Position numbers and translations under genes: made by a program
DNA from: Candidatus Brachybacter algidus
GTDB taxonomy: Bacteria; Bacteroidota; Bacteroidia; Chitinophagales; Saprospiraceae
Assembly: GCA_016711705.1 (NCBI GenBank)
Contig: JADJSK010000008.1
Span: 3,803-67,802, forward strand
Direction: 5' to 3'
DNA length: 64,000 nt
Shown here: positions 1,466 to 62,400 of the stretch, piece by piece
Position numbering within the stretch: position 1 is the stretch's first letter
Layout: each line of letters begins with the position of its first letter
The notes under the pieces: generated by a model
Told to the model about the DNA's origin: nothing
Seen by the model: only the letters and a program-made list of their open reading frames with translations
Databases searched by the model: none

Positions 1466-1477
1466 TTTTTTTAAGAG

Positions 1478-1631
1478 GTTAGAAAGTGAGAATGTGAGAA
1501 AGTGAGAAGGAGTCCACCCCCTTGGCCCCCTCCGAAGGGGGACATGTGGAGAGCCGCATGGTTTTGTTTATTATTCAATGTTTTAATATTAATGGAGTGA
1601 GAATGTGAGAAGGTGAGAAGGTGATGAGGAG
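1478..1631 (+). repeat. Arm-core-arm composite: GTGAGAAN octamer array (1478-1510), GC-hairpin element (1511-1545 plus conserved tail to about 1575), second octamer array (1594-1631)
   Basis: Read directly: gttagaaagtgagaatgtgagaaagtgagaagg / agtccacccccttggccccctccgaagggggacat... / ggagtgagaatgtgagaaggtgagaaggtgatgaggag. Confidence 0.9.
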
Positions 1632-1982
1632 TTAAACAAGTTTTTTTATTAATCCTGATAACATACTTTTGATATGATTCAATTTTCTGAACATCTCAGG
1701 ATCTTCTTTTATATATCCGATTCTATTTGATAAAATATATTGGGTTTCCAGTTCTGCGCAGGATCCAAGGGAATAAAAAAGAAACCTTTTAAATTCAGGA
1801 CCACTTTGCCTGGCTGCCCCTTCTGCTATATTAGACGGAATAGATATGGCGCATCTTCTCATTTGTGAGGAAAGTCCATATTTCTCATCTAAAGGTAAAC
1901 ATTTTGTGATTTCGTAAATGCTGGTAACTAAATCCATAGAAACTTGCCAGACCACGAGGTCTTTGTGGGATGAAATTTTCAT
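1632..1982 (-). CDS. Four-helix-bundle protein (TIGR02436, 23S rRNA intervening-sequence protein family)
   Basis: 116 aa with family hallmarks DLVVWQ, EKYGLSSQMRRCAISIPSNIAEG and GSCAELETQ. Confidence 0.9.
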   Translation of the reverse strand: MKISSHKDLVVWQVSMDLVTSIYEITKCLPLDEKYGLSSQMRRCAISIPSNIAEGAARQSGPEFKRFLFYSLGSCAELETQYILSNRIGYIKEDPEMFRKLNHIKSMLSGLIKKLV

Positions 1983-2066: not shown

Positions 2067-2106
2067 CCTCCCTTCTCACCTCCTCACTTCTTCACCTTCT
2101 CACCCC
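2067..2106 (-). repeat. Inverted copy of the GTGAGAAG array (reads cttctcac on the plus strand); partner arm of 1594-1631
   Basis: cctcccttctcacctcctcacttcttcaccttctcacccc. Its reverse complement aligns to 1594-1631 at about 28 of 38 positions (hand alignment). Confidence 0.85.
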
Positions 2107-2108
2107 TT

Positions 2109-3147: not shown

Positions 3148-3156
3148 TTTTATAAA

Positions 3157-3271
3157 GGTAGAAGTTAGAAGTTAGAAGGACGCTTTGGATGATATTTTAC
3201 TTTTTCTTAAAAGAGGATGCTTAAGGTTTAACAAAAGTTAGAAGGTGAGAATGTGAGAATGTGAGAAGGGG
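3157..3271 (+). repeat. Arm-core-arm composite with TTAGAAG/GTGAGAAT arrays (3157-3179 and 3236-3271) around a 56-nt core
   Basis: ggtagaagttagaagttagaagg ... agttagaaggtgagaatgtgagaatgtgagaagggg. Confidence 0.85.
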
Positions 3272-3528
3272 TCTTCGAAGTTTAATTTTTTGCTGAATGA
3301 AAAAGAAGATAAATCACAGAGGCAATTAGTTGCTATTATTTGCTGTTGTAATTGATATTCAGAATTTTAGAGAATTTAATGAAGATTTGAGATATATGAA
3401 TTCAATAATTATTTATATTAAAGATTCTACTTTGACTTAAATATTACACTACAAAATACAAGAGTTCACGGAGGGATTTTAATCTTTGATTAAAATTTTG
3501 CACAGATGAAACTGTTGTGCCTTGATTT

Positions 3529-3707
3529 GATTACCCATTACGCATTACCTATTTCCCATTATTTATCATTTATCATTTGAATTCATAATGTCACCACCTT
3601 CGGGGTTTTGGGATTTTCATGCATTTGATTTTCTATAAAAATGTCAACCTTTCAGGTTTTTTGCTTCATCATTACCCATTACTGATTACCCATTACTTAT
3701 AATCACC
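3529..3707 (+). repeat. Arm-core-arm composite with CATTACC heptamer arrays (3529-3579 and 3667-3707) around an 87-nt core
   Basis: gattacccattacgcattacctatttcccatt... and catcattacccattactgattacccattacttataatcacc. The right arm overlaps the last codons and stop of the pseG/H ORF. Confidence 0.85.
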
Positions 3708-5120: not shown

Positions 5121-5265
5121 GATATTATCTTTGATATTATTATGAACATGCCTACGACCTGAGATGATGAGGGAAATCCCAGGCCTACGACCTGGGTTAT
5201 GGGAAGTCGCCCTTTCAGGGCTAGTGGATAACCAAATATCATGAAATAAACTATTAAAATAACTA

Positions 5266-5310
5266 CTCATTACCCATTACCCATTACTCATTACCCATCT
5301 CCCATTTCAC
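5266..5310 (+). repeat. CATTACC heptamer array overlapping the pseF 3' end
   Basis: ctcattacccattacccattactcattacccatctcccatttcac. On the minus strand it encodes ...KWEMGNE and the stop. Confidence 0.85.
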
Positions 5311-11834: not shown

Positions 11835-12302
11835 TTAGTTCTTTTTAGTTAATTGTTCTATATCATTCAAATCTTTGTGTCTGGCTGAAGATTTTTTAGC
11901 AGTAATTAATTGATTCAAATGAATGACATTAATAATTAAATCTTCTTCGACTTGGTATCTGACTTTATTATTAAAGACTTCCTCAAATTCTACTCCTTTC
12001 ATTTTTGTCATTATATCAATGGAGACCGGTGGTCGACCAAATTCAAAAACATCGAATTCTTTTATATTTAAAAATCGTTCCAATGTCATACTAAACAAGG
12101 ACATTCCAAATTCATCAAAGGCATGAATTATTTTGGAATAATTTTCACTAGTTGGATTTACAAATAGATCCATGTCTCCGGTAGTACGCTGATAACCATG
12201 AATTATAACAGAATATCCACCTACAAGAACATATTCAACACCTGCCCTTTCAAATGAAGATAAAAAATCATTAAAGTCAGAATTGAATATATTGTTTGTC
12301 AT
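11835..12302 (-). CDS. Minimal nucleotidyltransferase-fold protein (pol-beta superfamily, MNT/DUF6036-like)
   Basis: 155 aa, LVGGYSVIIHGYQRTTGDMDLFV, which fits the G[GS]...DxD NTase motif. Its ATG overlaps the stop of the upstream small ORF (ATGA at 12299-12302). Confidence 0.6.
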   Translation of the reverse strand: MTNNIFNSDFNDFLSSFERAGVEYVLVGGYSVIIHGYQRTTGDMDLFVNPTSENYSKIIHAFDEFGMSLFSMTLERFLNIKEFDVFEFGRPPVSIDIMTKMKGVEFEEVFNNKVRYQVEEDLIINVIHLNQLITAKKSSARHKDLNDIEQLTKKN

Positions 12303-12508
12303 TGACTTTTCCTCATATTGAAATGAGTTTTATCCATTATCCTTTTATTCGAATAAGGAATACCATAAGCTGAACATGTAAGCTGCCATGAAGCGGACAA
12401 TCGTTCTTTTACTGAACGGCTCAACCAATATTCAATATTATTTCCCTTTTCTTCAAAGGAAACAATGCGCATGGCAGTTCGGTCGAGTTTAATTTGGTTT
12501 TCTTTCAC
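12299..12508 (-). CDS. Small hypothetical protein, translationally coupled partner of the NTase
   Basis: 69 aa. Its GTG start overlaps the ugd stop (GTGA at 12505-12508). No recognisable domain. Confidence 0.45.
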   Translation of the reverse strand: MKENQIKLDRTAMRIVSFEEKGNNIEYWLSRSVKERLSASWQLTCSAYGIPYSNKRIMDKTHFNMRKSQ

Positions 12509-13809
12509 GGCCTCCCTATCGATTCAAAATAAAATCCATTTTGTTGCATCGTGGCCGGATCGAAGATATTTCTACCATCGAAGATTGCTTTGTCGATCAA
12601 TTTACTTTTAATAAAGTTGAAGTCAGGTGAACGGAATTCATTCCATTCAGTGAGTATCATCAGCGCATTTGCATTATTTAAAACCTCATATTGGTCATTC
12701 GCGAAGGCTATTTTATCACCATATAATTTTTCCACATTTTCCATTGCTTCCGGATCGAATGCCTGGACAATAGCTCCTGCTTTTAATAATTTTTCAATGA
12801 TGTATAATGCCGGAGCTTCACGGATATCGTCTGTATTTGGTTTGAATGCTAGACCCCAAAGAGCAATGGTTTTACCTTTCAGGTCACCTTTATAATAATT
12901 TCTGATCTTGTCGAATAGGACGGTTCTTTGTTTTTCATTGACCTTGATCACAGAATCCAGAATGCTGAACTCGTATTCGTTCTGGTCAGCTATTTTTGCC
13001 AAAGCTTTGACATCCTTCGGGAAACAAGACCCTCCATAACCAATGCCGGGAAATAAAAACCTTTTTCCAATTCTCGTATCAGAACCCATGCCTAGACGCA
13101 CCATGTCTACATTAGCACCTACTTTTTCACATAGATTTGCGATCTCATTCATGAAAGTGATCTTGGTAGCAAGAAATGAATTCGCAGCGTATTTGGTCAA
13201 CTCTGCAGAACGTTCATCCATGAAGTAAATCGGATTTCCTTGTTTGACGAAGGGTTCATAAAGGGTGCGCATCACTTCTCTGGCTCTCTCAGAATTAGTA
13301 CCGATTACGACTCTATCAGGCTTCATAAAATCTTCCACAGCAACTCCTTCTCTTAGAAATTCCGGATTGGAAACCACATCAAACAAATCTTCCGAAATAT
13401 TCTTTGCAATGGCATTATGAACCATTTCTGCTGTTCCTACAGGAACTGTGCTTTTATCGATAATGATTTTATATTTTTTTATCAAATTGCCCAACTTATT
13501 CGCTACATCGATAATGTAAGATAGGTCGGCAGAACCATCTTCTCCTTCCGGAGTAGGTAATGCAAGGAAAATAATATCACCAAAATCCACTGCTTTTGCA
13601 AGATCAGTGGTAAATTCCAGTCTTTTCTTTTCGATATTTCTGTGAAAAATTACTTCAAGTCCAGGTTCGTAAATAGTAATTTTACCTGCGCTAAGACTTT
13701 TGACTTTTTCCTCATTTATGTCCACACACATGACATGATTGCCTGTCTCAGAGAAACATGTTCCTGTGACGAGTCCAACGTAGCCGGTGCCGATAACTGT
13801 GATGTTCAA
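12505..13809 (-). CDS. ugd: UDP-glucose 6-dehydrogenase
   Basis: 434 aa, NITVIGTGYVGLVTG, GGSCFPKDV active-site motif. The apparent TTG start (13807-13809) lies inside a repeat arm. Confidence 0.93.
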   Translation of the reverse strand: MNITVIGTGYVGLVTGTCFSETGNHVMCVDINEEKVKSLSAGKITIYEPGLEVIFHRNIEKKRLEFTTDLAKAVDFGDIIFLALPTPEGEDGSADLSYIIDVANKLGNLIKKYKIIIDKSTVPVGTAEMVHNAIAKNISEDLFDVVSNPEFLREGVAVEDFMKPDRVVIGTNSERAREVMRTLYEPFVKQGNPIYFMDERSAELTKYAANSFLATKITFMNEIANLCEKVGANVDMVRLGMGSDTRIGKRFLFPGIGYGGSCFPKDVKALAKIADQNEYEFSILDSVIKVNEKQRTVLFDKIRNYYKGDLKGKTIALWGLAFKPNTDDIREAPALYIIEKLLKAGAIVQAFDPEAMENVEKLYGDKIAFANDQYEVLNNANALMILTEWNEFRSPDFNFIKSKLIDKAIFDGRNIFDPATMQQNGFYFESIGRP

Positions 13810-13990
13810 TTGTTAATTATTAGTTGTTAATTGTTATTCTACCCCGATGTGAAGGGACTGTAAAATGTTTGATTTGAGCAAGGAGGTTCAATTGTTAATT
13901 ATTAGTTGTTAATTGTTATACTACTTTGATTTGAAGGATCTATTAAACGGTTATTTTGTGCGAAGTTGGATAATTGTTAATTATTATTTG
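13805..13990 (+). repeat. About 2.3 tandem copies of an 82-bp unit (33-nt TTGTTAAT-type arm plus about 50-nt core)
   Basis: ttcaattgttaattattagttgttaattgttat is exact at 13805-13837 and 13887-13919. A partial arm ataattgttaattattatttgg lies at 13968-13990. Confidence 0.95.
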
Positions 13991-14358
13991 GGTGTGGGAT
14001 TCCTATTTTGCTTTGCTTTCGATGTTTTTATGATACTGGTTAGCATTTTTATTAGCTCGATGCTAATTGAATTTAGTCTTTCGAATTTATCTTTTGAAAT
14101 AAGATTCGAACCATTTAAAAGCTCTAACCAATATATTGTTTCATTGCTTTCTTTTTGAGCAATTGACAATTTATGAATAAAATCCTTTCCACTTTCGGCA
14201 TGTTGTGCTTCTCTATATAATGCACCGATCGCTGTTCCTGAGCGTAAGAGTTGATTTGATAAAACAAATTCTTTCTTTGTTGTTTGTAAATCTCTGCATA
14301 ATTCAACAACATCAAGGGCAAACTGAAAACTTTTGGTTTTAAAGTGATTCTCTGTCAT
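13984..14358 (-). CDS. Four-helix-bundle protein (TIGR02436 family, second subtype)
   Basis: 124 aa with LLRSGTAIGALYREAQHAES, FIHKLSIAQKESNETIYWLELL. Confidence 0.88.
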   Translation of the reverse strand: MTENHFKTKSFQFALDVVELCRDLQTTKKEFVLSNQLLRSGTAIGALYREAQHAESGKDFIHKLSIAQKESNETIYWLELLNGSNLISKDKFERLNSISIELIKMLTSIIKTSKAKQNRNPTPK

Positions 14359-14408
14359 AATTCCGGGTGAATTTATCTATTTTTATATATTCTTCAATCT
14401 GTGCAAAA

Positions 14409-14441
14409 ATAACAATTAACAACTAATAACTAACAATTACC
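14409..14441 (-). repeat. Inverted copy of the 33-nt arm; closes a stem around the four-helix-bundle ORF
   Basis: ataacaattaacaactaataactaacaattacc is the reverse complement of the 13887-13919 arm at 29 of 33 positions. Confidence 0.95.
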
Positions 14442-14545
14442 GCATGGCTTCGCCGTCAATAAGTCGCACTTATAGCCCTAAAATAAATCACTAAAATATT
14501 GATTATGTTATACTTAAAAATTTAAATAAACATAATATAAAATAA

Positions 14546-15058
14546 TTAAACGGTGGATGGTTCGAGTTGTTTTTTATTGATTTCTATTTGTAAAGCAATA
14601 CCAAGTGAGTCAAAATTGACAACTAATTTGCCTTTGGATTTTATTTGTGAAATGATGCCTTTCATGCCGAATAGCGGACCATTGGAGACTTTTACAGATT
14701 GGCCGAGACCATATTCTACCTCTGTTAAGATCAGATCTTCTTCAATTCCCTCAATTCTCCTTAGTATCTCTATCTCTCTATCCTGAACCGGTCTCAATTG
14801 AGGGCCGGTTTTGACAAAATTGTACACATATTCCGTTTCAAGAACTTTGATATAATCCTGAGCTGGTATCTGTACAAATAAGTAACATGGTAATATTGGA
14901 ACTGTGTGATGCACTATTTTCCTTTGGTAGCGCTTTGTATAATTGCGCATTGGAGCATACGAAATCACTCCTTTTTTATCAAGTTGTTGGAGTACAATTT
15001 TTTCACTTTTGTACTTCACCTTAATAGCATACCAAGCATTTTCACTTATATCCTGCAT
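14546..15058 (-). CDS. UpxY-family (NusG-like) transcription antiterminator
   Basis: 170 aa, WYAIKVKYKSEKIV NGN start and a KOW-like GQSVKVSNGPLFGMKGII. It sits at the head of the polysaccharide locus. Confidence 0.85.
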   Translation of the reverse strand: MQDISENAWYAIKVKYKSEKIVLQQLDKKGVISYAPMRNYTKRYQRKIVHHTVPILPCYLFVQIPAQDYIKVLETEYVYNFVKTGPQLRPVQDREIEILRRIEGIEEDLILTEVEYGLGQSVKVSNGPLFGMKGIISQIKSKGKLVVNFDSLGIALQIEINKKQLEPSTV

Positions 15059-15061
15059 CGA

Positions 15062-15598
15062 TTATATTTTTGATGACCATAGCAACAATGGCTCCTGACC
15101 TTTTACTGTCAATGCATATTGTCCATATTCTGAATTACTGAAAATTACATAGCGGATCTTACGTTTAATCACCACTTCCGCTTTTGATACCAATGTAGAA
15201 AGATACTCTCTGTCGATATCCCCAAGTATAATAAGGTCAACTATAGGCGAATCAACACCTGTAGCAAAGGCTCCTGTAAGATACACATGATCAACATTGC
15301 CTAATCTTTCTATCACATCATTGATGATCTGATCGATGCCGATATGCTTTAAAAGGATATTGTGAATCTCGCGGAAAAGTGGATGGGACGTATTTGCAGA
15401 GAAGATCTTTTTATTCCCATTGGGGATAGAATTGATTAATCCGGCCTTTTCAAACTTGTTTAATTCCAGTCTTATGGCATTGGTGGACTCACCCATCTCG
15501 CTCTCCAGACTACGAAGATACGCTGTCGCTCCCTTGTTCAAGAAGAACTTGAAAAGTAACTTGACTCTAGTCTTTGAGGATATTAATGTTTCTATCAT
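15062..15598 (-). CDS. Winged-helix (ArsR-like) transcriptional regulator with a C-terminal nucleotidyltransferase-like domain
   Basis: The N-terminus SKTRVKLLFKFFLN...AYLRSLESEMGESTNAIRLELNKFEKAGLI is wHTH-like. The C-terminus has YLTGAFATGVDSPIVDLIILGD. The likely start is MIETL (15596-15598). Confidence 0.6.
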   Translation of the reverse strand: MIETLISSKTRVKLLFKFFLNKGATAYLRSLESEMGESTNAIRLELNKFEKAGLINSIPNGNKKIFSANTSHPLFREIHNILLKHIGIDQIINDVIERLGNVDHVYLTGAFATGVDSPIVDLIILGDIDREYLSTLVSKAEVVIKRKIRYVIFSNSEYGQYALTVKGQEPLLLWSSKI

Positions 15599-15733
15599 AT
15601 CAAAAATGAGTAGCAAAACTACTCATTTTTAATTATTTGTGAAGCAAAATAGTGTTAAAAATCCCATGAATACTAAATATACAGAAAAACTACCAGTAGT
15701 TTTCTAACATAAATACGGTTTGGGTTTTTACAC

Positions 15734-15765
15734 AAAAGAAAAAAGGGCCGAAAATTCAGCCCTTT
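15734..15765 (-). terminator. Rho-independent terminator after the 15773-16401 gene
   Basis: On the minus strand, aagggc-N10-gccctt is followed by ttttttcttttg. Confidence 0.6.
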
Positions 15766-15772
15766 AAATTAT

Positions 15773-16401
15773 CTATTGACAATTGGCCAAACCTTCCTGA
15801 GCCTGATCAAGCCCCCATGTTGGGCTGAGGTCACTTGCAGGCTTAAATGCTTCAAACATTCTTACTGATTTTTCAAATATAGGTTTTGCAACAGCTTTGC
15901 CACCCCCAAATTGCTCCGGAGTATAAAATGTAGTTTGTGCTTCCAGCATATACGGCCTTGGATTGGTCGGATCCAGCTTCTTAGCTTTATCAAGTGCACT
16001 ACTGGCCTCCATACCATAAGTCTGCCATCTGGCCATGGGATCGACTGACATAGCCATCACAGCGGACATTTGCTTTAAGCAATATATCTCAGAATTATCC
16101 TTACTAAGTGCATCAGCCTGAGCAATCAATTCATTTGTTTTGGCAGAAACTTTATCTTTATCTGCTGTTTCATCCATCCATCCCGCAAGGTTATTTGTGA
16201 GCGCAGCGTAGTAATAAGGTAACCAATTTGTTTTTTCGAATTTGCAATTCTTTCAAAATATGCTGAAGCCGAACTCATTTCATTTGATGTCTTAGCATCT
16301 TTAATTTGCTGAAGTCCCGCAGCCATTGCTTTCTCATAACCGGATTGTGCAAACAAACCTGTCGAAAGTAATAGAACACATAATAGAAGTAAATTTTTCA
16401 T
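15773..16401 (-). CDS. Secreted hypothetical protein (signal peptide, helical/TPR-like); one frameshift as sequenced
   Basis: ORFs 16126..16401 and 15773..16177 join as ...FERIANSKK | TNWLPYYYAALTNNLAGWMDETADKD... across the T6 run at 16231-16236. Confidence 0.6.
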
Positions 16402-16440: not shown

Positions 16441-18681
16441 CTATAAATTATTATTGATATTATCCAATGTCCTGTCTACACCCCAACTCATAAATACTCC
16501 TAAGAAAACGCTTTGTGCAGTAGGAGGTTGAACGGCTTTTTCTTACATAAAGATTGTTTTCATCCAACAATCTTGAGCTATAATTATACCCAAATATTTG
16601 CTTTTGATTAAATACATTATTGAGACTAAATACCACTACCGCATTACTCTTGAAAATGTTAGTCAGCCAATTTACACTTACATTATGGCTTTGATAAACC
16701 CTTGTTTTTTCACTTAAGAAATCCTCAGCAGGTAAATTTGGGTTAAAATATGGTCTACCTGACGTCACTGTATAACTCCAATTGATGCCGATAAATTTAC
16801 TCATCCAGAATTTCTTTAGCACTATACTTCCGGAATGTCTTGCTGCAAAAGTGGGTGTGGCCGAAATAGGATAATTTAAATAATCTCTTTTTGTGTCGAT
16901 GTAAGAATAACTCAACCAGTAATTAAATCCCTTGAAAGTTTTTTTGTCTCTCCAGAAAAACTCAAGTCCACGCGCATAACCTGTGCCGTTGGTATTAGCT
17001 ATGCTTATAGCATTATCATCTGTCTTGACAAGGCTAACATATTCTTTATCATAAGCCTGAATCCTAAATGTATAATCTTTTGTCAGCCATTGATAAGTAA
17101 GGATGTAGTGATCAGCTCGTTGGAAGTCAAAATCATTGTCAAATAACAAGTATTTTCTTTCAGGTGTTTGGTAAAAGATACCGTAATCCGCTGTTAGTTG
17201 CATCTGTGGAGCAATCTTATAGGAAAGACTCATTCTTGGGGCAATATTGGCCCTTGAGATCAATTTACTATATTCAATTCTTATGCCGGGACGAAAGGCC
17301 AGATTTTTTGAAAGATAAATATCTGACTCAACAAATGCGGCTCCATAAGTATCCTCAATATCAGTTTCACCATTGAAAAATGCTGAATTGATATCCGCAT
17401 GATCTTTATTATACCATGCTTCTGCACCAAATCTCAAAGCATTCAAACCATCAAACTTCCTTTCAAGGAGCGACCTCAACTGCCACATTTGTTGGGTAGC
17501 AATAGATGAAAAATTGACATTGTCCAAGGATTCAATGCCGATATTCATCAATTGCTGATTTTGATCATTTAGTAATTTAGCATCTATGTTGTCCTTATTA
17601 TAACTATAACTCGCTACACCGAAGTATTTCCAATGCTTTCCTAGGGACTGTTTAAAACTTGTATTGAAGTAAACATTGGCATTGTCGACACGATAACCAT
17701 TTTTTAGACCGATAGAATCAAGTGACTCCTGCCGAATACCCTGCTTGCCAAAACTATATGTGGCGTATGCTTTGAAAATACCGTTCTTTTTGTTTTAAAC
17801 CTATAATTCATATCCCCGTCATGACCGATAGGTGCCTGAGATATGTCAAAACGTTGAGGAATAACAGCCATGTACAGTCCAAGATTGGCATAAGAATAGC
17901 TTGCTCCAAAACTTTGAGTCTTCTCCGAATTGACTTTTTGAAAGCCGGCTGAAAGAAAAATTGGTGACACTCCAAGTTGAAACTCACTTCTTGCAGGCAG
18001 ATCAACACTTTCCAGATTAAGTACAGCACTAAGTGCTTGTCCATATAATGCGCTATATCCACCGCTCGTAAAAGAGGTTCCGCTAAATAAAAAAGGCGAA
18101 AATCTGCCTCGTGAAGCAATGCCCGGAATACTGGAATAAAAGAAATTATTGACCACTGCCCCATCGATAATAATTTTGGCTTCTTCGGCAGAACCACCTC
18201 TAACGAATAAGCCTTCTTGCTCGCCGACTTTCTGCACACCAGGCACCGTCTGAAGAGTTGCTGAAATATCAGCGTCAGCTCCGGCAGTAGTAATTATATC
18301 CAGTAACGAAAGCACAGTAGCACGTTTTTTGTCACCTGCTTCAAATGAACCTGCGGTAATAACTACGGCATTCAGTTCAGAGATCTCTTCTATTAGCTTG
18401 AGATTAATTTCAATATTATTCTTGTTGATATCAAGATACTGCTCGGCAGACTTGTAACCAATAAAAGATCCTATGAGAGTCACCGGACCTTCGGAGGAAG
18501 TCTTAAATGTAAATTTTCCAGTAGAATCTGAAATAGCACCATCATAAGCATCCTTTATGTAGACATTTACACCAGGAATACTATTGCCATTTTCATCCGT
18601 GGTTTTTCCATGGATGGTATTTTGTGCGTATGAATCCAGTGAAAATAAAAGAAACAAAAATAGGGTAAGGACTTTAATCAT
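16441..18681 (-). pseudogene. TonB-dependent receptor (CarboxypepD_reg-like N-domain, plug, barrel); 2 frameshifts as sequenced
   Basis: The N-terminus has a signal peptide, then TIHGKTTDENGNSIPGVNVYIKD and a plug region. The frame breaks at the T5 run 17787-17791 (continues KKNGIFKAYATYSFG...) and at the T5 run 16537-16541 (true C-terminus ...AVQPPTAQSVFLGVFMSWGVDRTLDNINNNL, stop 16441-16443). Confidence 0.8.
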
Positions 18682-23049: not shown

Positions 23050-23333
23050 TTGGAGGTGAGAGGGTTATGAGATTAGGAGAGGGGTGGAGAATTGAAAATT
23101 GAAAATTGAAAATTGAAAATGGGGCGAATAGTGGGAAGGATATATCTAATTTGACTTTTGGCTTGTAGTTAAAAGCTTATGGCTTTAATTCCTCTGAAGC
23201 AATTTGCATGTAGAAATCAGTGCAATCAAAGAAATCAATTTAATCAGTGGTTCAGACAAATTAATGATGGTTATTGGCAGGAAAGGGAAAGTTGAAAATG
23301 AGGAAGGAAAAATGAGCAATGGAAAATTACGGC
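23050..23333 (+). repeat. Composite: G/A-rich degenerate array, TTGAAAA heptamer array (23086-23124), core, degenerate GAAAAT array (23281-23333)
   Basis: ggagaattgaaaattgaaaattgaaaattgaaaatgggg, followed by the gcgaatagtgggaagga and aaagcttatggct modules. Confidence 0.85.
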
Positions 23334-24254: not shown

Positions 24255-24540
24255 TCGGCTGATGGCTATTGGCTGATGGCTGATGGCTCCATAGTAGTAG
24301 CGAGAATTGTTTGTGTCTTTAGGAAAGGGGAATTGAAAATTGAAAATTGAAAATTGAAAACGACGCGAAGATTAGGAAGTAATGCCTAAAGCTTAATGCT
24401 TATAGCTTTTGGCCATTGGCTGATGGCTCCATAATGGTATCGAGAATAGTTTGTATTCTTAGGAAATTGAAAATGATGCGAAGTTTGGGAAGTATTTTTT
24501 GGTGCAATTTCCGGGCTAAAGCCTAATGTTTATAGCTTAT
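24255..24540 (+). repeat. Two tandem copies of a multi-module composite (GGCTGAT array, unique 33-mer, TTGAAAA array, gcgaag module, AAGCTTAT module)
   Basis: Copy 1 is 24255-24406 and copy 2 is 24411-24540. For example, atagtagtagcgagaattgtttgtgtctttagg matches ataatggtatcgagaatagtttgtattcttagg. Confidence 0.85.
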
Positions 24541-24589
24541 GGTCAATGTCATTAAGTTAAGCAATTGAAATCAATAATATTTTACAGAC

Positions 24590-24743
24590 AATATTTCGGT
24601 GCGCTGCACCTGATAGTCTATCAAATCTATTTCTATAAATATCCCTGTGCGCTGCACCTTTGCTTTTCTTACAGGTGCAGCGCACCACAATATTTATACA
24701 GTTCGTATTAAGGCTGCTCCAAGGTGCAGCGCACCGAGATATT
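24590..24743. repeat. Nested inverted-repeat element built on four GGTGCGCTGCACC motifs
   Basis: The outer stem is 24590-24610 with 24723-24743 (21 nt, 1 mismatch). The inner stem is 24647-24659 with 24673-24685 (13 nt, perfect). Confidence 0.9.
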
Positions 24744-24840
24744 TTGAAAGAACCTATGGCTATAACTTTATGACATTGAGCTTATGCCTGAAGGCTAAAT
24801 TTGGTTAAAATACAAATCCTAATAGTATCGTGGGTAACAC

Positions 24841-24957
24841 CATCATTTGTAATTTATCATTTATAATTATTTACAGCACACCCATCACCCATCACCCTAT
24901 CACCCTATCATCCTGATCACCCGATCACCCTATCACCTGATCACCTGATCACCTGAT
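24841..24957 (+). repeat. ATCACCY heptamer/octamer array preceded by a TTATCAT-type degenerate array
   Basis: cacccatcacccatcaccctatcaccctatcatcctgatcacccgatcaccctatcacctgatcacctgatcacctgatc. Confidence 0.9.
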
Positions 24958-25035
24958 CTAACTCCCTATCAATTAAATTTTTACATAATTAAATAATTAC
25001 CAATCATTTATCCTAAAAATACTTTTAAAATAAAT

Positions 25036-25102: not shown

Positions 25103-25258
25103 ATGAAACGGACATTCCAGCCTTCAAGGCGTAAAAGAGTAAACAAACACGGATTCAGATCTCGTATGAGTACTAAAAACGGTAGGAGAGTCCTTGCCAA
25201 CAGAAGAGCGAAGGGAAGGCACAAGCTGACTGTTTCTGATGAGATGAAGACTAAGTAA
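25103..25258 (+). CDS. rpmH: 50S ribosomal protein L34
   Basis: Not in the ORF track because it is under 60 aa. Hand translation gives [51 protein letters not shown]. Confidence 0.95.
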
Positions 25259-29920: not shown

Positions 29921-30035
29921 GATGAAATGGAAAATTTATAAAGGGGCGAAGGAGAGTGAGTAGTTTTTCATGTTAAGGGTGGCCTAAAGCTATAGGCTGA
30001 TACCCAATGGCCAATAGCCAATAGCTGATGGCTTC
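29921..30035 (+). repeat. Composite of the same modules (GAAAAT, gcgaag, AAGCTAT, GGCTGAT/CCAATAG arrays)
   Basis: atggaaaatttataaaggggcgaaggagagtgagtag...ggcctaaagctataggctgatacccaatggccaatagccaatagctgatggcttc. Confidence 0.75.
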
Positions 30036-30185
30036 GTTGCAGAAAATAGGATACCTTTCTTTCACCAACCATCAATTCGTCAGGAAAAATTCAGTGTAAT
30101 CAAATAAATCAATTAAATTCCTGCCTTTGTTGGCAAGCAAGCGAGGATCAGACAAATAGCCAAAAGCTGATTACTGATTAACTAT

Positions 30186-30257
30186 AATACTCTAATACTG
30201 ACATACTCTAATACTGACATACTCTAATACTGACATACTTTAATACTGACATACTAA
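30186..30257 (+). repeat. About 4.5 copies of a 16-bp tandem repeat (atactctaatactgac)
   Basis: Read directly. It ends at the stop codon of the TPR gene. Confidence 0.95.
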
Positions 30258-42895: not shown

Positions 42896-43915
42896 ATGGG
42901 CAAGATCCTGGTAACGGGCGGATGCGGTTATATAGGAAGTCATACTATAGTAGAACTTATTCAACTTGGATATGAGGTGGTATGTATAGATGATCTGAGC
43001 AATTCTGATGGTTCCGCCATCGAGGGAATCGAAAGCATAACAGGTGTTAAAGTAAAGAATACAAAAATCAGTGTTGGCGATTCAGTTGCATTGCAGACTT
43101 TTTTTAAGGAAGAAGGTCCGATTGAAGCGGTGATACACTTTGCCGCATTTAAGGCTGTAAATGAATCAGTTATTTTCCCTCTAAAATATTATCAAAATAA
43201 TCTTGCAAGTCTCCTTGCCTTAATTGAGACTATGAAAAGTTATCACTGTAATAATTTGATTTTTTCCTCTTCTTGCAGTGTATATGGAGATGCGGAAACA
43301 CTTCCTGTCAATGAGCAAACTACATTGGGTGTGATTCAAAGCCCTTATGCCAGAACAAAACTTATTGGAGAAGAAATATTACAGGATTGTTGTCTTGCAG
43401 ATCCTGAATTTAAAGTCATCGCTCTGAGGTATTTTAATCCGGCAGGAGCGCACATTAGTAATTTTATAGGAGAATCCCCTACCATAAATGCTTCAAATCT
43501 GGTACCTGTGATCACAGAAACTGCCATAGGCAAACGACAGGAAATGAGTGTATTTGGAGATGATTATCCTACCAGGGATGGCACTTGTATCAGAGATTAT
43601 ATTCATGTATCAGATATCGGATCAGCTCATGCCATAGCTATTTCTTATATGAAAGATAAAATGGATGTTTCCAATTTTGAAATTTTCAATTTGGGTTCAG
43701 CAAATGGAAATACTGTACTCGAAGTAATTCATGCATTCGAAAAATCAAACGGTCTTTTTCCAAAATTCAAAATTGTACCAAGAAGAGCAGGAGATGTCAT
43801 AGCAATATATGCAGATAATAGGAAAGCCTTGGATCTATTGAATTGGAAGATTAAGCACAATCTAGAGGATATTGTGAGAACGGCGTGGGAATGGGAGAAG
43901 AAACGATCGATATGA
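42896..43915 (+). CDS. galE: UDP-glucose 4-epimerase
   Basis: 339 aa, VTGGCGYIGSH, SPYARTKLIGE (YxxxK). Confidence 0.93.
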   Translation: MGKILVTGGCGYIGSHTIVELIQLGYEVVCIDDLSNSDGSAIEGIESITGVKVKNTKISVGDSVALQTFFKEEGPIEAVIHFAAFKAVNESVIFPLKYYQNNLASLLALIETMKSYHCNNLIFSSSCSVYGDAETLPVNEQTTLGVIQSPYARTKLIGEEILQDCCLADPEFKVIALRYFNPAGAHISNFIGESPTINASNLVPVITETAIGKRQEMSVFGDDYPTRDGTCIRDYIHVSDIGSAHAIAISYMKDKMDVSNFEIFNLGSANGNTVLEVIHAFEKSNGLFPKFKIVPRRAGDVIAIYADNRKALDLLNWKIKHNLEDIVRTAWEWEKKRSI

Positions 43916-44063
43916 GTAATGAGTAATTCAGTGGTCAGTGGTCAGTAATCAGTGGTCAGTTATCAGTAATCAGTTATCAGTGGTCAGTAACTTAGAATTT
44001 AGATATCAAGTTTTAGGTGAGAAAGGAAGAATGGAAAATTGAGAATGGAAAATTGAAAATGAT
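43914..44063 (+). repeat. CAGTRRT heptamer array (43914-43991) followed by a GAAAAT/GGAAGA degenerate array (44016-44063)
   Basis: gagtaatgagtaattcagtggtcagtggtcagtaatcagtggtcagttatcagtaatcagttatcagtggtcagtaac. Confidence 0.9.
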
Positions 44064-44091
44064 GGTCAGTTTCCTTAAGCAATGCTATCTC

Positions 44092-44412
44092 GTTTCCACA
44101 GCAGAGCTATCAGCCAATAGCCAATGGCCGGCAGCTTTAGTGAGAGGTGAGAAGGTGAGAAGGTGAGAAGGTATGAGAAATTCAATATTCAGACTTCCGG
44201 TTTAATATCAATATACAATACTGTCCTTTAGGATATTATATGTTCTAGTTTCCACAGCAGAGCTATCAGCCAATAGCCAATGGCCGGCAGCTTTAGTGAA
44301 GAGGTGAGAAGGTGAGAAGGTATGAGAAATTAATATAGGACGGTTTAATTTATATGTTCTAGTTTCCACAGCAGAGCAAACAGCCAATAGCCAATAGCCA
44401 TCAGCCATAAAT
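44092..44412 (+). repeat. Three direct copies of a composite unit (gtttccacagcagagc, CCAATAG array, GTGAGAAG array), starting at 44092, 44248 and 44362
   Basis: gtttccacagcagagctatcagccaatagccaatggccggcagctttagtga is exact in copies 1 and 2. Copy 3 is truncated. Confidence 0.9.
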
Positions 44413-62250: not shown

Positions 62251-62400
62251 AAATTATAAATGGTGAATGATAAATTATAAATGGTGAGTAATGGGTAATG
62301 GGTAATGGGTAATGGGTAATGGGTAATAGGTAATGGGTAATGGGTAATGGGTAATAGGTAATAGGTAATAGGTAATAGGTAATGAGTGATAATTGATAAG
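62251..62400 (+). repeat. Longest heptamer array in the window: about 15 units of GGTAATR, preceded by the attataaatggtgaatg module
   Basis: taatgggtaatgggtaatgggtaatgggtaatgggtaataggtaatgggtaatgggtaatgggtaataggtaataggtaataggtaataggtaatg. Confidence 0.95.

Follow-up and report, generated by a model that had tools for sequence, protein, structure and literature searches.

Inverted heptamer arrays around a four-helix-bundle gene in the upxY-ugd spacer of Candidatus Brachybacter algidus and around related genes in other bacteria

Intervening sequences of 23S rRNA that carry an open reading frame (ORF) of the PF05635 family, as found in Coxiella burnetii and Leptospira, are the closest described counterparts of the element treated here. 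In Coxiella, the intervening sequence has a 28-bp terminal stem, is excised by RNase III, and contains two or three GACAGAT heptamers 5′ of the ORF, the number of which differs by strain (PMC4990558). Dispersed heptanucleotide arrays form another described group, comprising the cyanobacterial short tandemly repeated repetitive (STRR) sequences, the GGGAATC repeats of Xanthomonas with about 70 convergent pairs, the TAACTGA repeats of Beggiatoaceae, and the Geobacter elements of four or five heptamers (PMC4692102, PMC4679880, PMC2700814). The element in question is a gene for a four-helix-bundle protein of the PF05635 family, which is bracketed by inverted heptamer arrays in the spacer between the genes upxY and ugd, within a stretch of 64,000 nt from contig JADJSK010000008.1 of Candidatus Brachybacter algidus (the window). 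Cassette coordinates are given on the window numbering, and the coding strand is the minus strand.

The inverted repeat was confirmed to be real, and it is a local copy of a widespread cassette, in which a 5′ G-rich array of 7-nt (sometimes 8-nt) units is followed by a TIGR02436/PF05635 gene and a 3′ reverse-complementary, C-rich array. The cassette behaves as a discrete insertion, usually in a short spacer between co-directional genes and elsewhere in 23S rRNA. The reading as a whole, i.e. a family-wide insertion cassette of array, gene and array, the arms of which pair in the operon RNA with likely excision by RNase III, is given a probability of about 0.6.

Inverted heptamer arrays between upxY and ugd

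The 30-mer AATTGTTAATTATTAGTTGTTAATTGTTAT was present in two exact copies (13808-13837 and 13890-13919) and, on the other strand, in one inverted copy at 14409-14438 with a single mismatch (29/30), and no match to it was obtained in 100 dinucleotide-preserving shuffles of the window. An earlier note on this DNA, made from the letters alone, had described the arm over 33 nt; both exact copies were found in the sequence, as were the inverted arm with 29 of 33 identities and the partial third copy (18/19) overlapping the stop codon of the ORF (Table 1). Four to five heptamers in tandem make up each arm (TTGTTAA/TTATTAG/TTGTTAA/TTGTTAT). On the coding strand, the units of the 5′ arm are AATTGTT, AGTTATT, AGTTGTT and AATTGTT, and the 3′ side is their mirror image.

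According to Tandem Repeats Finder, the 3′ side is built of 2.3 copies of an 82-nt unit with 80% matches. This unit consists of the arm and a 49-nt core, and it takes up the whole distance between the stop codon of the ORF and the start codon of ugd. The two full 3′ arms are identical over 33 nt, and the 49-nt cores have diverged. The last unit of the distal arm provides the TTG start codon of ugd (13809-13807), the duplicated segment takes in TTGAAC, which is the first two ugd codons, and an in-frame TAA is located two codons 5′ of the TTG. Hence, the 82-nt tandem duplication has placed a second, identical 3′ array on the start codon of ugd.

The enclosed ORF belongs to TIGR02436/PF05635 by the curated profile cutoffs, with 88.2 bits for PF05635 (E-value 5e-25, cutoff 33.8) and 104 bits for TIGR02436 (cutoff 24). 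The nearest solved structure is 2RLD, a Bacteroides thetaiotaomicron protein (E-value 1.5e-30), the entry of which holds five chains. Homology to 2RLD supports a predicted four-helix-bundle fold and a putative pentamer assembly of the window protein. The upstream neighbour upxY scored 106.5 bits against NF033644 (cutoff 100). As had been claimed, upxY, the cassette and ugd are all on the minus strand, and co-transcription of upxY, the cassette gene and ugd is probable. A search of the region 13000-15800 against Rfam returned no rRNA and, at E-values up to 1, two weak unrelated matches. UpxZ was rejected as an identity for the element.

When the minus-strand RNA of 13795-14450 was folded, the long stem appeared in the minimum-energy as well as in the centroid structure (z = -5.6), and none of 20 shuffles was as good, so the comparison with shuffled controls that the earlier note had proposed turned out in favour of the stem. 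As an isolated duplex, the arms formed 31 contiguous pairs at -35.8 kcal/mol, including one G:U, which bears out the expectation of about 30 contiguous pairs with the sole internal mismatch becoming G:U in the minus-strand RNA. With 29/30 complementarity and a loop of 489 nt, the predicted stem corresponds to the enclosing stem of a 23S rRNA intervening sequence. In the ensemble, the 5′ arm favoured the proximal over the distal 3′ copy by about 2:1 (Table 1), the two pairing alternatives being at most 2 kcal/mol apart. These folding models suggest that the arms may pair in vivo as well.

Occurrence and insertion of the array-gene-array unit

The family is very large, with at least 7,992 matches among 8,000 candidates scored, in many phyla. 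A census was taken of 81 loci, of which 80 were obtained from reference genomes via the family profile (52-63% identity) and one was the metagenome locus L005. The taxa covered were Bacteroidota, Chlorobiota, Ignavibacteria, Acidobacteriota, Nitrospira, Desulfobacteraceae, Spirochaetes, Leptospiraceae, Anaerolineales, Omnitrophota and Gammaproteobacteria. Within 150-nt flanks, an inverted-repeat score of at least 14 was reached by 41 of 78 family genes in comparison to 10 of 223 other ORFs of the same loci (Fisher p ~1e-19); two of these ten control ORFs were second family genes, and most of the others adjoined one. When the flanks were limited to 45 nt, a period-7 and/or inverted signal (at least one) was found for 85% of the family genes and 16% of the controls. 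Pooled autocorrelation over 60-nt flanks at lags 7, 14 and 21 gave 0.51, 0.49 and 0.45 upstream, and 0.51, 0.47 and 0.42 downstream, versus 0.27 in the controls. A strict lag-7 detector (at least 18/21 matches) missed heterogeneous arrays and thereby undercounted, and pooled autocorrelation and inverted-repeat scores with controls were used instead. The census of complementary flanks, which had been put forward as a check on the stem-enclosed gene, was thus strongly favourable.

Heptamer flanks were present in nearly all census loci, G/T-rich upstream and as reverse complements downstream. The upstream units included AATTGTT, AATGGTT, AGTGGTT, AAGGGTT and AATTGAG, the first two being the commonest, and array length ranged from 2 to >15 units among the loci. 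In 68 of the 81 loci both neighbouring genes were co-directional with the family gene, at median gaps of 36 and 42 nt. Typically, a G-rich array followed the stop codon of the upstream gene, then came the family gene and a C-rich array, after which the next gene began; the first TAA of the 3′ array was often the stop codon of the family gene itself. The order of variant units was mirrored between the arms (29/30 in the present cassette, and likewise 29/30 in locus L037). The 5′ arm was the G-rich one in 50 of 54 census loci and in 11 of 14 others, which argues for a strand-specific constraint. Two cassettes of the window, 13805-14441 and 1473-2108, share the array-gene-array design, this polarity, and the location in a co-directional spacer.

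Divergent homologues (28-55% identity) were found at 14 plasmid-borne loci with both window proteins as queries. The same layout with other units was seen in 12 of the 13 non-rRNA loci, or 13 of 14 when the rRNA locus is included, and the phyla concerned were Cyanobacteriota, Spirochaetota, Bacillota, Chloroflexota, Gemmatimonadota and Bacteroidota. The units were (ATTCGTA)4/(TTACGAA)4 in Nostoc flagelliforme, GATTTTA in Gloeocapsa and Chlorohelix, (GTAGGGA)8/(TCCCTAC)5 in Nostoc edaphicum, AAGGGAA in Geminocystis, GGAGATA in Picosynechococcus, GGTTTAA in Riemerella, AATTAGG/AATGAGG in the Firmicute Monoglobus, GAAAGTG-type arrays in Treponema, and the octamer GGCAGGAG in Gemmatirosa. The lone exception among the 14 was locus L107 of Nostoc PCC 7120, with arrays on both sides that are not complementary. 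Locus L112, on plasmid AZO_p2 of Azospirillum lipoferum 4B, is a true 23S rRNA intervening sequence (Rfam LSU rRNA, 653 bits), in which the arms TCAGAGGACGGATGACAGAGGACGGAGGACAGA and TCCGTCCTCTGTCTTCTGTCATCCGTCTTCTGA, with heptamers CAGAGGA/CGGATGA, enclose a homologous ORF. Searches of viral contigs and phages with the second family protein of the window gave no match. The structural part of the claim that an ORF is enclosed by a stem, in the manner of an intervening sequence, within an mRNA spacer was accordingly supported, and it was made general by the census, by L112 and by the second cassette.

In relatives, the array-gene-array unit was shown to be an inserted unit by three pairs of occupied and empty sites on cyanobacterial plasmids. 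In pNFSY06 of Nostoc flagelliforme, a 432-bp unit (1131-1562) replaces 176 bp, which in three other Nostoc plasmids, with flanks 85-90% identical to pNFSY06, lie within an ORF that is intact there, Cys/His-rich and about 100 aa long. In the cas10-cmr3 spacer, Picosynechococcus PCC 7003 has 448 bp in place of 32 bp in plasmid pAQ6 of PCC 7002; the replaced 32 bp comprise 20 nt from the 3′ end of cas10 plus the 12 nt that separate it from cmr3, and in PCC 7003 the first array unit provides a new stop codon for cas10. In the nrdB-nrdA spacer, 494 bp in Nostoc edaphicum correspond to 13 bp in Calothrix, with the cassette antisense to the operon. In all three pairs the boundaries were at the outer array ends or at most about 20 nt from them, no target-site duplication was seen, and 13-176 bp were replaced each time. 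The cassette unit encodes neither a recombinase nor a transposase, and transposase genes were also absent within 6 kb of it.

The comparison with empty sites, which the earlier note had suggested for the upxY-ugd spacer itself, held for these plasmid pairs, where the boundaries track the arrays; at the home locus, no empty site was found. All related contigs reaching the spacer carry a near-identical cassette. Contigs L001-L004 are of the same strain as the window and uninformative on empty sites, and a scan of metagenomes for UpxY yielded contigs of the same species only, of which L089, L094 and L095 have the cassette and L091-L093 stop before the spacer. Where L089 departs from the window, the differences are concentrated in the 3′ half of ugd and past it, and not near the cassette. 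Contig L090 (560-720) matches the window without a difference as far as 14639, which falls inside upxY, and then runs into an unrelated histidine-kinase-like gene; this junction is probably an assembly chimera or a rearrangement.

Hairpins of the same heptamers without a gene, composed of a G-rich arm, a short loop and a C-rich arm, were observed in spacers of cassette loci (Table 1), and they recall rRNA intervening sequences that have no ORF. Elsewhere, cassettes are located inside defence operons (L099, L097, L100, L101, L108, L075, L005, and L017/L046/L048), in the settings hsdS-cassette-hsdR, DrmD-cassette-PglX or MmeI, DUF1156-cassette-Swt1 HEPN, hsdS-cassette-AlbA_2 and cas10-cassette-cmr3, and 3′ of cas1. 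Restriction and defence genes made up about half of 20 sampled neighbours.

Second cassette and other features of the window

A NeuB-family gene and an RmlA-like nucleotidyltransferase gene are the neighbours of the second cassette of the window, the family protein of which showed no similarity to that of the upxY-ugd cassette in a BLASTP comparison of the two. In the predicted RNA fold, its long 5′ array pairs with both 3′ arrays (z = -4.0). A CCCCCTTCGGAGGGGG hairpin was observed between these two 3′ arrays.

Within the window, inverted pairs of arrays were confined to the two family genes, and the arrays were unpaired in the four array-rich regions checked. Examples of unpaired arrays are GTAATGG in 14 copies, TCAGTGA in nine copies and CACCCGAT in ten copies, and the octamer type of the second cassette, GTGAGAAG, recurs in unpaired arrays at 44140-44321. 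The unpaired arrays tend to be G-rich, as read on the coding strand, directly after stop codons, and C-rich directly before start codons.

Table 1. Positions of the cassettes, their parts and neighbours in the window, and of gene-less hairpins at other loci (aa, amino acids; pI, isoelectric point).
Feature	Position	Strand	Remarks
5′ arm, G/T-rich, four to five heptamers; 49 nt 5′ of ORF start	14409..14441	-	period 7 at 14410-14436; pairs with 3′ arms in predicted fold
49-nt leader from 5′ arm to ATG; holds TATTTTTG at 14411-14404	14359..14408	-	match to Bacteroidota -7 box pattern; promoter reading weak
Four-helix-bundle gene, 124 aa, pI 9.4	13984..14358	-	PF05635 / TIGR02436
Partial 3′ array over ORF stop codon (TAATAATTAACAATTA)	13968..13990	-	repeat match 13972-13990, 95%
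Proximal full 3′ arm, A/C-rich, reverse complement of 5′ arm; preferred partner	13887..13919	-	about 20 expected bp with 5′ arm
Distal full 3′ arm, identical to proximal; carries ugd TTG	13805..13837	-	about 10 expected bp with 5′ arm
82-nt tandem unit, 2.3 copies	13806..13990	-	Tandem Repeats Finder, period 82
Upstream neighbour upxY, UpxY-family NusG-like antiterminator	14546..15058	-	NF033644
Downstream neighbour ugd, UDP-glucose 6-dehydrogenase, TTG start	12505..13809	-	in-frame TAA two codons 5′ of TTG
Second cassette: 5′ G-rich octamer array (GGTGAGAAG-type)	2071..2108	-	
Second cassette: four-helix-bundle gene of other subfamily, 116 aa, pI 9.0	1632..1982	-	PF05635 E-value 4.4e-36, 123.8 bits
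Second cassette: proximal 3′ C-rich octamer array (CTTCTCAC-type)	1596..1629	-	begins 3 nt past stop
Second cassette: second 3′ array	1473..1510	-	ends 7 nt before next ATG (1465); pairs with outer 5′ array in fold
Further period-7/8 arrays	62251-62384, 43912-44407, 24257-24408, 24845-24999, 30000-30255, 23090-23120, 3155-3697, 5264-5306, 40054-40070		
Gene-less hairpins at other loci	L026 2405-2478; L062 3478-3673; L046 725-807 and 1156-1216; L082 2371-2453		

In the leader of the upxY-ugd cassette, the window has one extra A near 14372 (GATAAATTC, versus GATAATTC in L001-L004). Due to this indel the upstream frame is longer in L001-L004, and the source annotation therefore calls a 145-aa product there.

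Other observations concern the remaining sequence of the window. The region 11835-12508 (minus strand) holds a DUF6036/DUF2204 nucleotidyltransferase-like ORF (155 aa) and an overlapping 69-aa ORF, a pair of toxin-antitoxin-like appearance within the polysaccharide operon, where it sits between two UDP-glucose/GDP-mannose dehydrogenase genes. At 16460-18681 (minus strand), a CarboxypepD_reg/Plug outer-membrane-receptor-like gene, which is a single gene of 746 aa in the near-identical contigs L001 and L003, is broken into two ORFs (325 and 363 aa) in the window and split in L002 too. Nested inverted repeats on GGTGCGCTGCACCT, with five pairs of 22-36 nt, form a cluster at 24535-24790, in a spacer 5′ of a small basic ORF (25103-25258).

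Interpretation and comparison with described systems

RNase III shows little sequence preference when it cleaves long perfect duplexes. In RNA that reads through from upxY, the two arms would pair into a duplex of about 30 bp round the family gene, and cleavage of this duplex by RNase III would release the RNA of the family gene and separate the transcripts of upxY and ugd. Since RNase III accepts duplexes of this length, excision of the cassette is most likely, like that of an intervening sequence from pre-23S rRNA; for the upxY-ugd RNA, cleavage is proposed by analogy with the rRNA elements. The duplicated 3′ arm probably keeps the initiation region of ugd free, or titratable: with the proximal copy paired, the distal copy would be left free as a G-poor leader and start codon of ugd, and pairing of the 5′ arm with the distal copy would occlude the region where ugd is initiated. 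An effect on ugd, and a role of the protein, would be possible.

Several observations weigh against this interpretation. Among the arm mismatches at 53 loci, 46 are G:U on the sense strand versus 65 A:C, in addition to 127 transversions that are mostly G/T variants of the units. Since G:U is not in excess over A:C, fine-scale selection on the sense RNA duplex is not demonstrated, and the G:U detail of the earlier note stands for the local minus-strand RNA and is without general support. Both family genes have a -7-like box, TATTTTTG, in the stretch that separates the 5′ array from their ATG (14404-14411 and 2050-2057, both on the minus strand), and if it is a promoter, the gene would have its own transcript without the 5′ arm. 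In a scan of the window, the pattern TANNTTTG had 84 matches versus 75 expected by chance and was thus not enriched; a sigma-70 promoter scan relies on a model unsuitable for Bacteroidota. Some 25 other period-7/8 arrays occur in spacers of the window, unpaired where checked, and this abundance implies that the arrays have a role or an origin that needs no partner. The arms could also be members of a shared repeat family that happen to lie in opposite orientation. The copy number of array units is invariant among the eight related contigs. The protein of the Coxiella intervening sequence, moreover, is apparently not made (PMC4990558).

Of the other explanations, the one that survives best, which we hold to be rather unlikely, takes the arrays as cognate DNA or RNA binding sites of the family protein or another factor, used in autoregulation, regulation or mobility, with the stem and RNase III being incidental. 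The period of 7-8 is conserved while the unit sequence varies by protein clade, and the proteins with AATTGAG-type arrays fall into a sub-clade that spans three phyla (76% identity within it, 60% to the main class); for AGTGGTT-type arrays, on the contrary, there is no such correspondence with protein identity (68% within the class, 66.5% to the main class). The unrelated-looking paralogues of the window each have their own unit, and the GTGAGAAG-type arrays recur without a partner. Both proteins are basic (pI 9.0-9.4), the arms are without a sense-strand G:U signature, and the family includes Avd, which binds nucleic acid and reverse transcriptase (PMC10053308). Simple DNA binding does not, however, predict the polarity of a G-rich 5′ and a C-rich 3′ array or the tight abutment on starts and stops, and the Coxiella intervening sequence is processed even though its protein is apparently untranslated (PMC4990558).

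An improbable explanation is translational punctuation, in which the G-rich 5′ array would stop reading frames, the C-rich and G-poor 3′ array would serve as an unstructured leader free of starts, and complementarity would be a by-product. Since the periods of 7 and 8 are not multiples of 3, a stop-bearing unit blocks all three frames, and array units do provide upstream genes and the family gene with their stop codons, and ugd with its start. The placement of the unpaired window arrays, G-rich after stops and C-rich before starts, fits this explanation, as do the TAACTGA arrays of Beggiatoaceae, which are located directly 5′ of starts and have stops in all three frames (PMC4679880). Units without a stop exist, however (AAGGGAA, GGCAGGAG and TTACGAA), the mirrored order of variant units here and in L037 is not required by punctuation alone, and the identical layout is found in 23S rRNA, where translation signals are irrelevant.

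Very improbable is a contingency switch, where slippage in simple sequence repeats would tune or phase-vary the polysaccharide genes. The strain-variable number of heptamers in Coxiella (PMC4990558) and the range of array lengths in the census would suit such a switch, and phase variation via heptamer repeats combined with an RNase III-targeted 5′ untranslated region is reported for Haemophilus (PMC12721329). The arrays are nevertheless identical in all eight related contigs that carry the upxY-ugd cassette, and being short (four to five units) and heterogeneous, they disfavour slippage.

The least credible explanation, that the arms are terminal inverted repeats of a classical transposon remnant with a passenger gene, or a chance match in AT-rich repetitive sequence, draws on the inverted termini and the insertion/deletion behaviour, and both of its forms were rejected because no shuffle matched, the three site pairs have replaced sequence in place of a target-site duplication, transposase is lacking from the unit and the adjoining 6 kb, the ends are tandem arrays of variable length rather than fixed termini, and the supposed passenger is always of the same protein family. 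Membership among miniature inverted-repeat elements or insertion sequences was rejected likewise, on the variable ends and the absent duplication in the three pairs.

The preferred reading, of an insertion cassette with arms pairing in the operon RNA, may be extended tentatively. The four-helix-bundle proteins could be trans partners of the 7-8-nt arrays, each lineage being specific for its own unit, and the cassettes could be widespread and self-propagating, inserting into operon spacers and rRNA helices, seeding the unpaired arrays and gene-less hairpins, and acting as the source of ORF-bearing 23S rRNA intervening sequences. If true, this possible extension would account for a large part of the surplus of heptanucleotide repeats that has long been noted in bacterial genomes.

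The findings bear on two questions that have stood since the 1990s, namely how ORF-bearing 23S rRNA intervening sequences arose and spread, and what the function of their protein family is. The rRNA elements appear as a special case of an array-gene-array unit that is present in hundreds of mRNA spacers, often in restriction-modification, CRISPR and other defence operons, and in polysaccharide loci. RNase III-dependent processing of many operon transcripts is predicted, for which natural pairs of occupied and empty strains are available, e.g. Picosynechococcus PCC 7003 and PCC 7002 at cas10-cmr3. At the present locus, the arrangement points to a structured and possibly cleaved spacer, directly 3′ of the UpxY antiterminator gene, to which the expression of a capsule-type operon's first biosynthetic gene would be tied.

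Among systems with a similar arrangement, the enterobacterial intercistronic RNase III hairpins and the repetitive extragenic palindromic (REP) and bacterial interspersed mosaic element (BIME) palindromes are stem-forming repeats between genes of an operon that can uncouple the stability or translation of the flanking cistrons. Unlike the present element, they are short, have no gene in the loop, and are not tandem arrays of 7-8 nt. Avd of diversity-generating retroelements forms a pentamer, and we know of no description of Avd genes as bracketed by inverted arrays of short repeats. Avd is homologous to PF05635 by sequence and structure, and it is small and basic (PMC10053308). Its genetic setting differs, and the family gene was rejected as an accessory gene of such a retroelement: no reverse transcriptase domain was encoded among the genes within 6 kb on L001-L003, and a pair of template and variable repeats was not noticed, although no search was aimed at one.

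With the dispersed heptanucleotide repeats, the present arrays share the short intergenic 7-nt units that are lineage-specific, often adjoin starts or stops, and are sometimes convergent (PMC4692102, PMC4679880, PMC2700814). They differ in that the inverted pairs specifically flank a four-helix-bundle gene, with unpaired arrays elsewhere in the same genome. Term searches in the full texts of PMC4692102 and PMC4679880 gave no mention of four-helix-bundle or S23 genes, and in the Geobacter paper (PMC2700814) the term 'four-helix', the only one looked up, gave no hit. The analysis joins these repeats with the protein family of the intervening sequences, a connection not found in the literature. 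In agreement with the earlier note, the literature search returned no published description that ties non-rRNA family genes to inverted arrays, which makes the architecture of these copies apparently undescribed, though curated family notes may mention it.

The likeness is closest to the 23S rRNA intervening sequences of Coxiella burnetii, Leptospira and the L112 locus. These encode a PF05635 protein, as here, and complementary termini surround the ORF with a stem of 28 bp in Coxiella and about 30 bp in the upxY-ugd spacer, the element length being ca. 430-500 nt in both (PMC4990558). Their 5′ arms are likewise of tandem heptamers, i.e. GACAGAT in Coxiella and CAGAGGA/CGGATGA in L112, as compared to AATTGTT here. 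The host RNA is different, however: the intervening sequences reside in helix 45 or 25 of 23S rRNA, and the present cassette in a protein-coding upxY-ugd spacer, so it is not a 23S rRNA intervening sequence in the strict sense. Excision by RNase III has been demonstrated for the rRNA elements and would be expected here. Unlike in the rRNA intervening sequences, the 3′ arm is duplicated in the upxY-ugd cassette and also provides the following gene with its leader and start codon.

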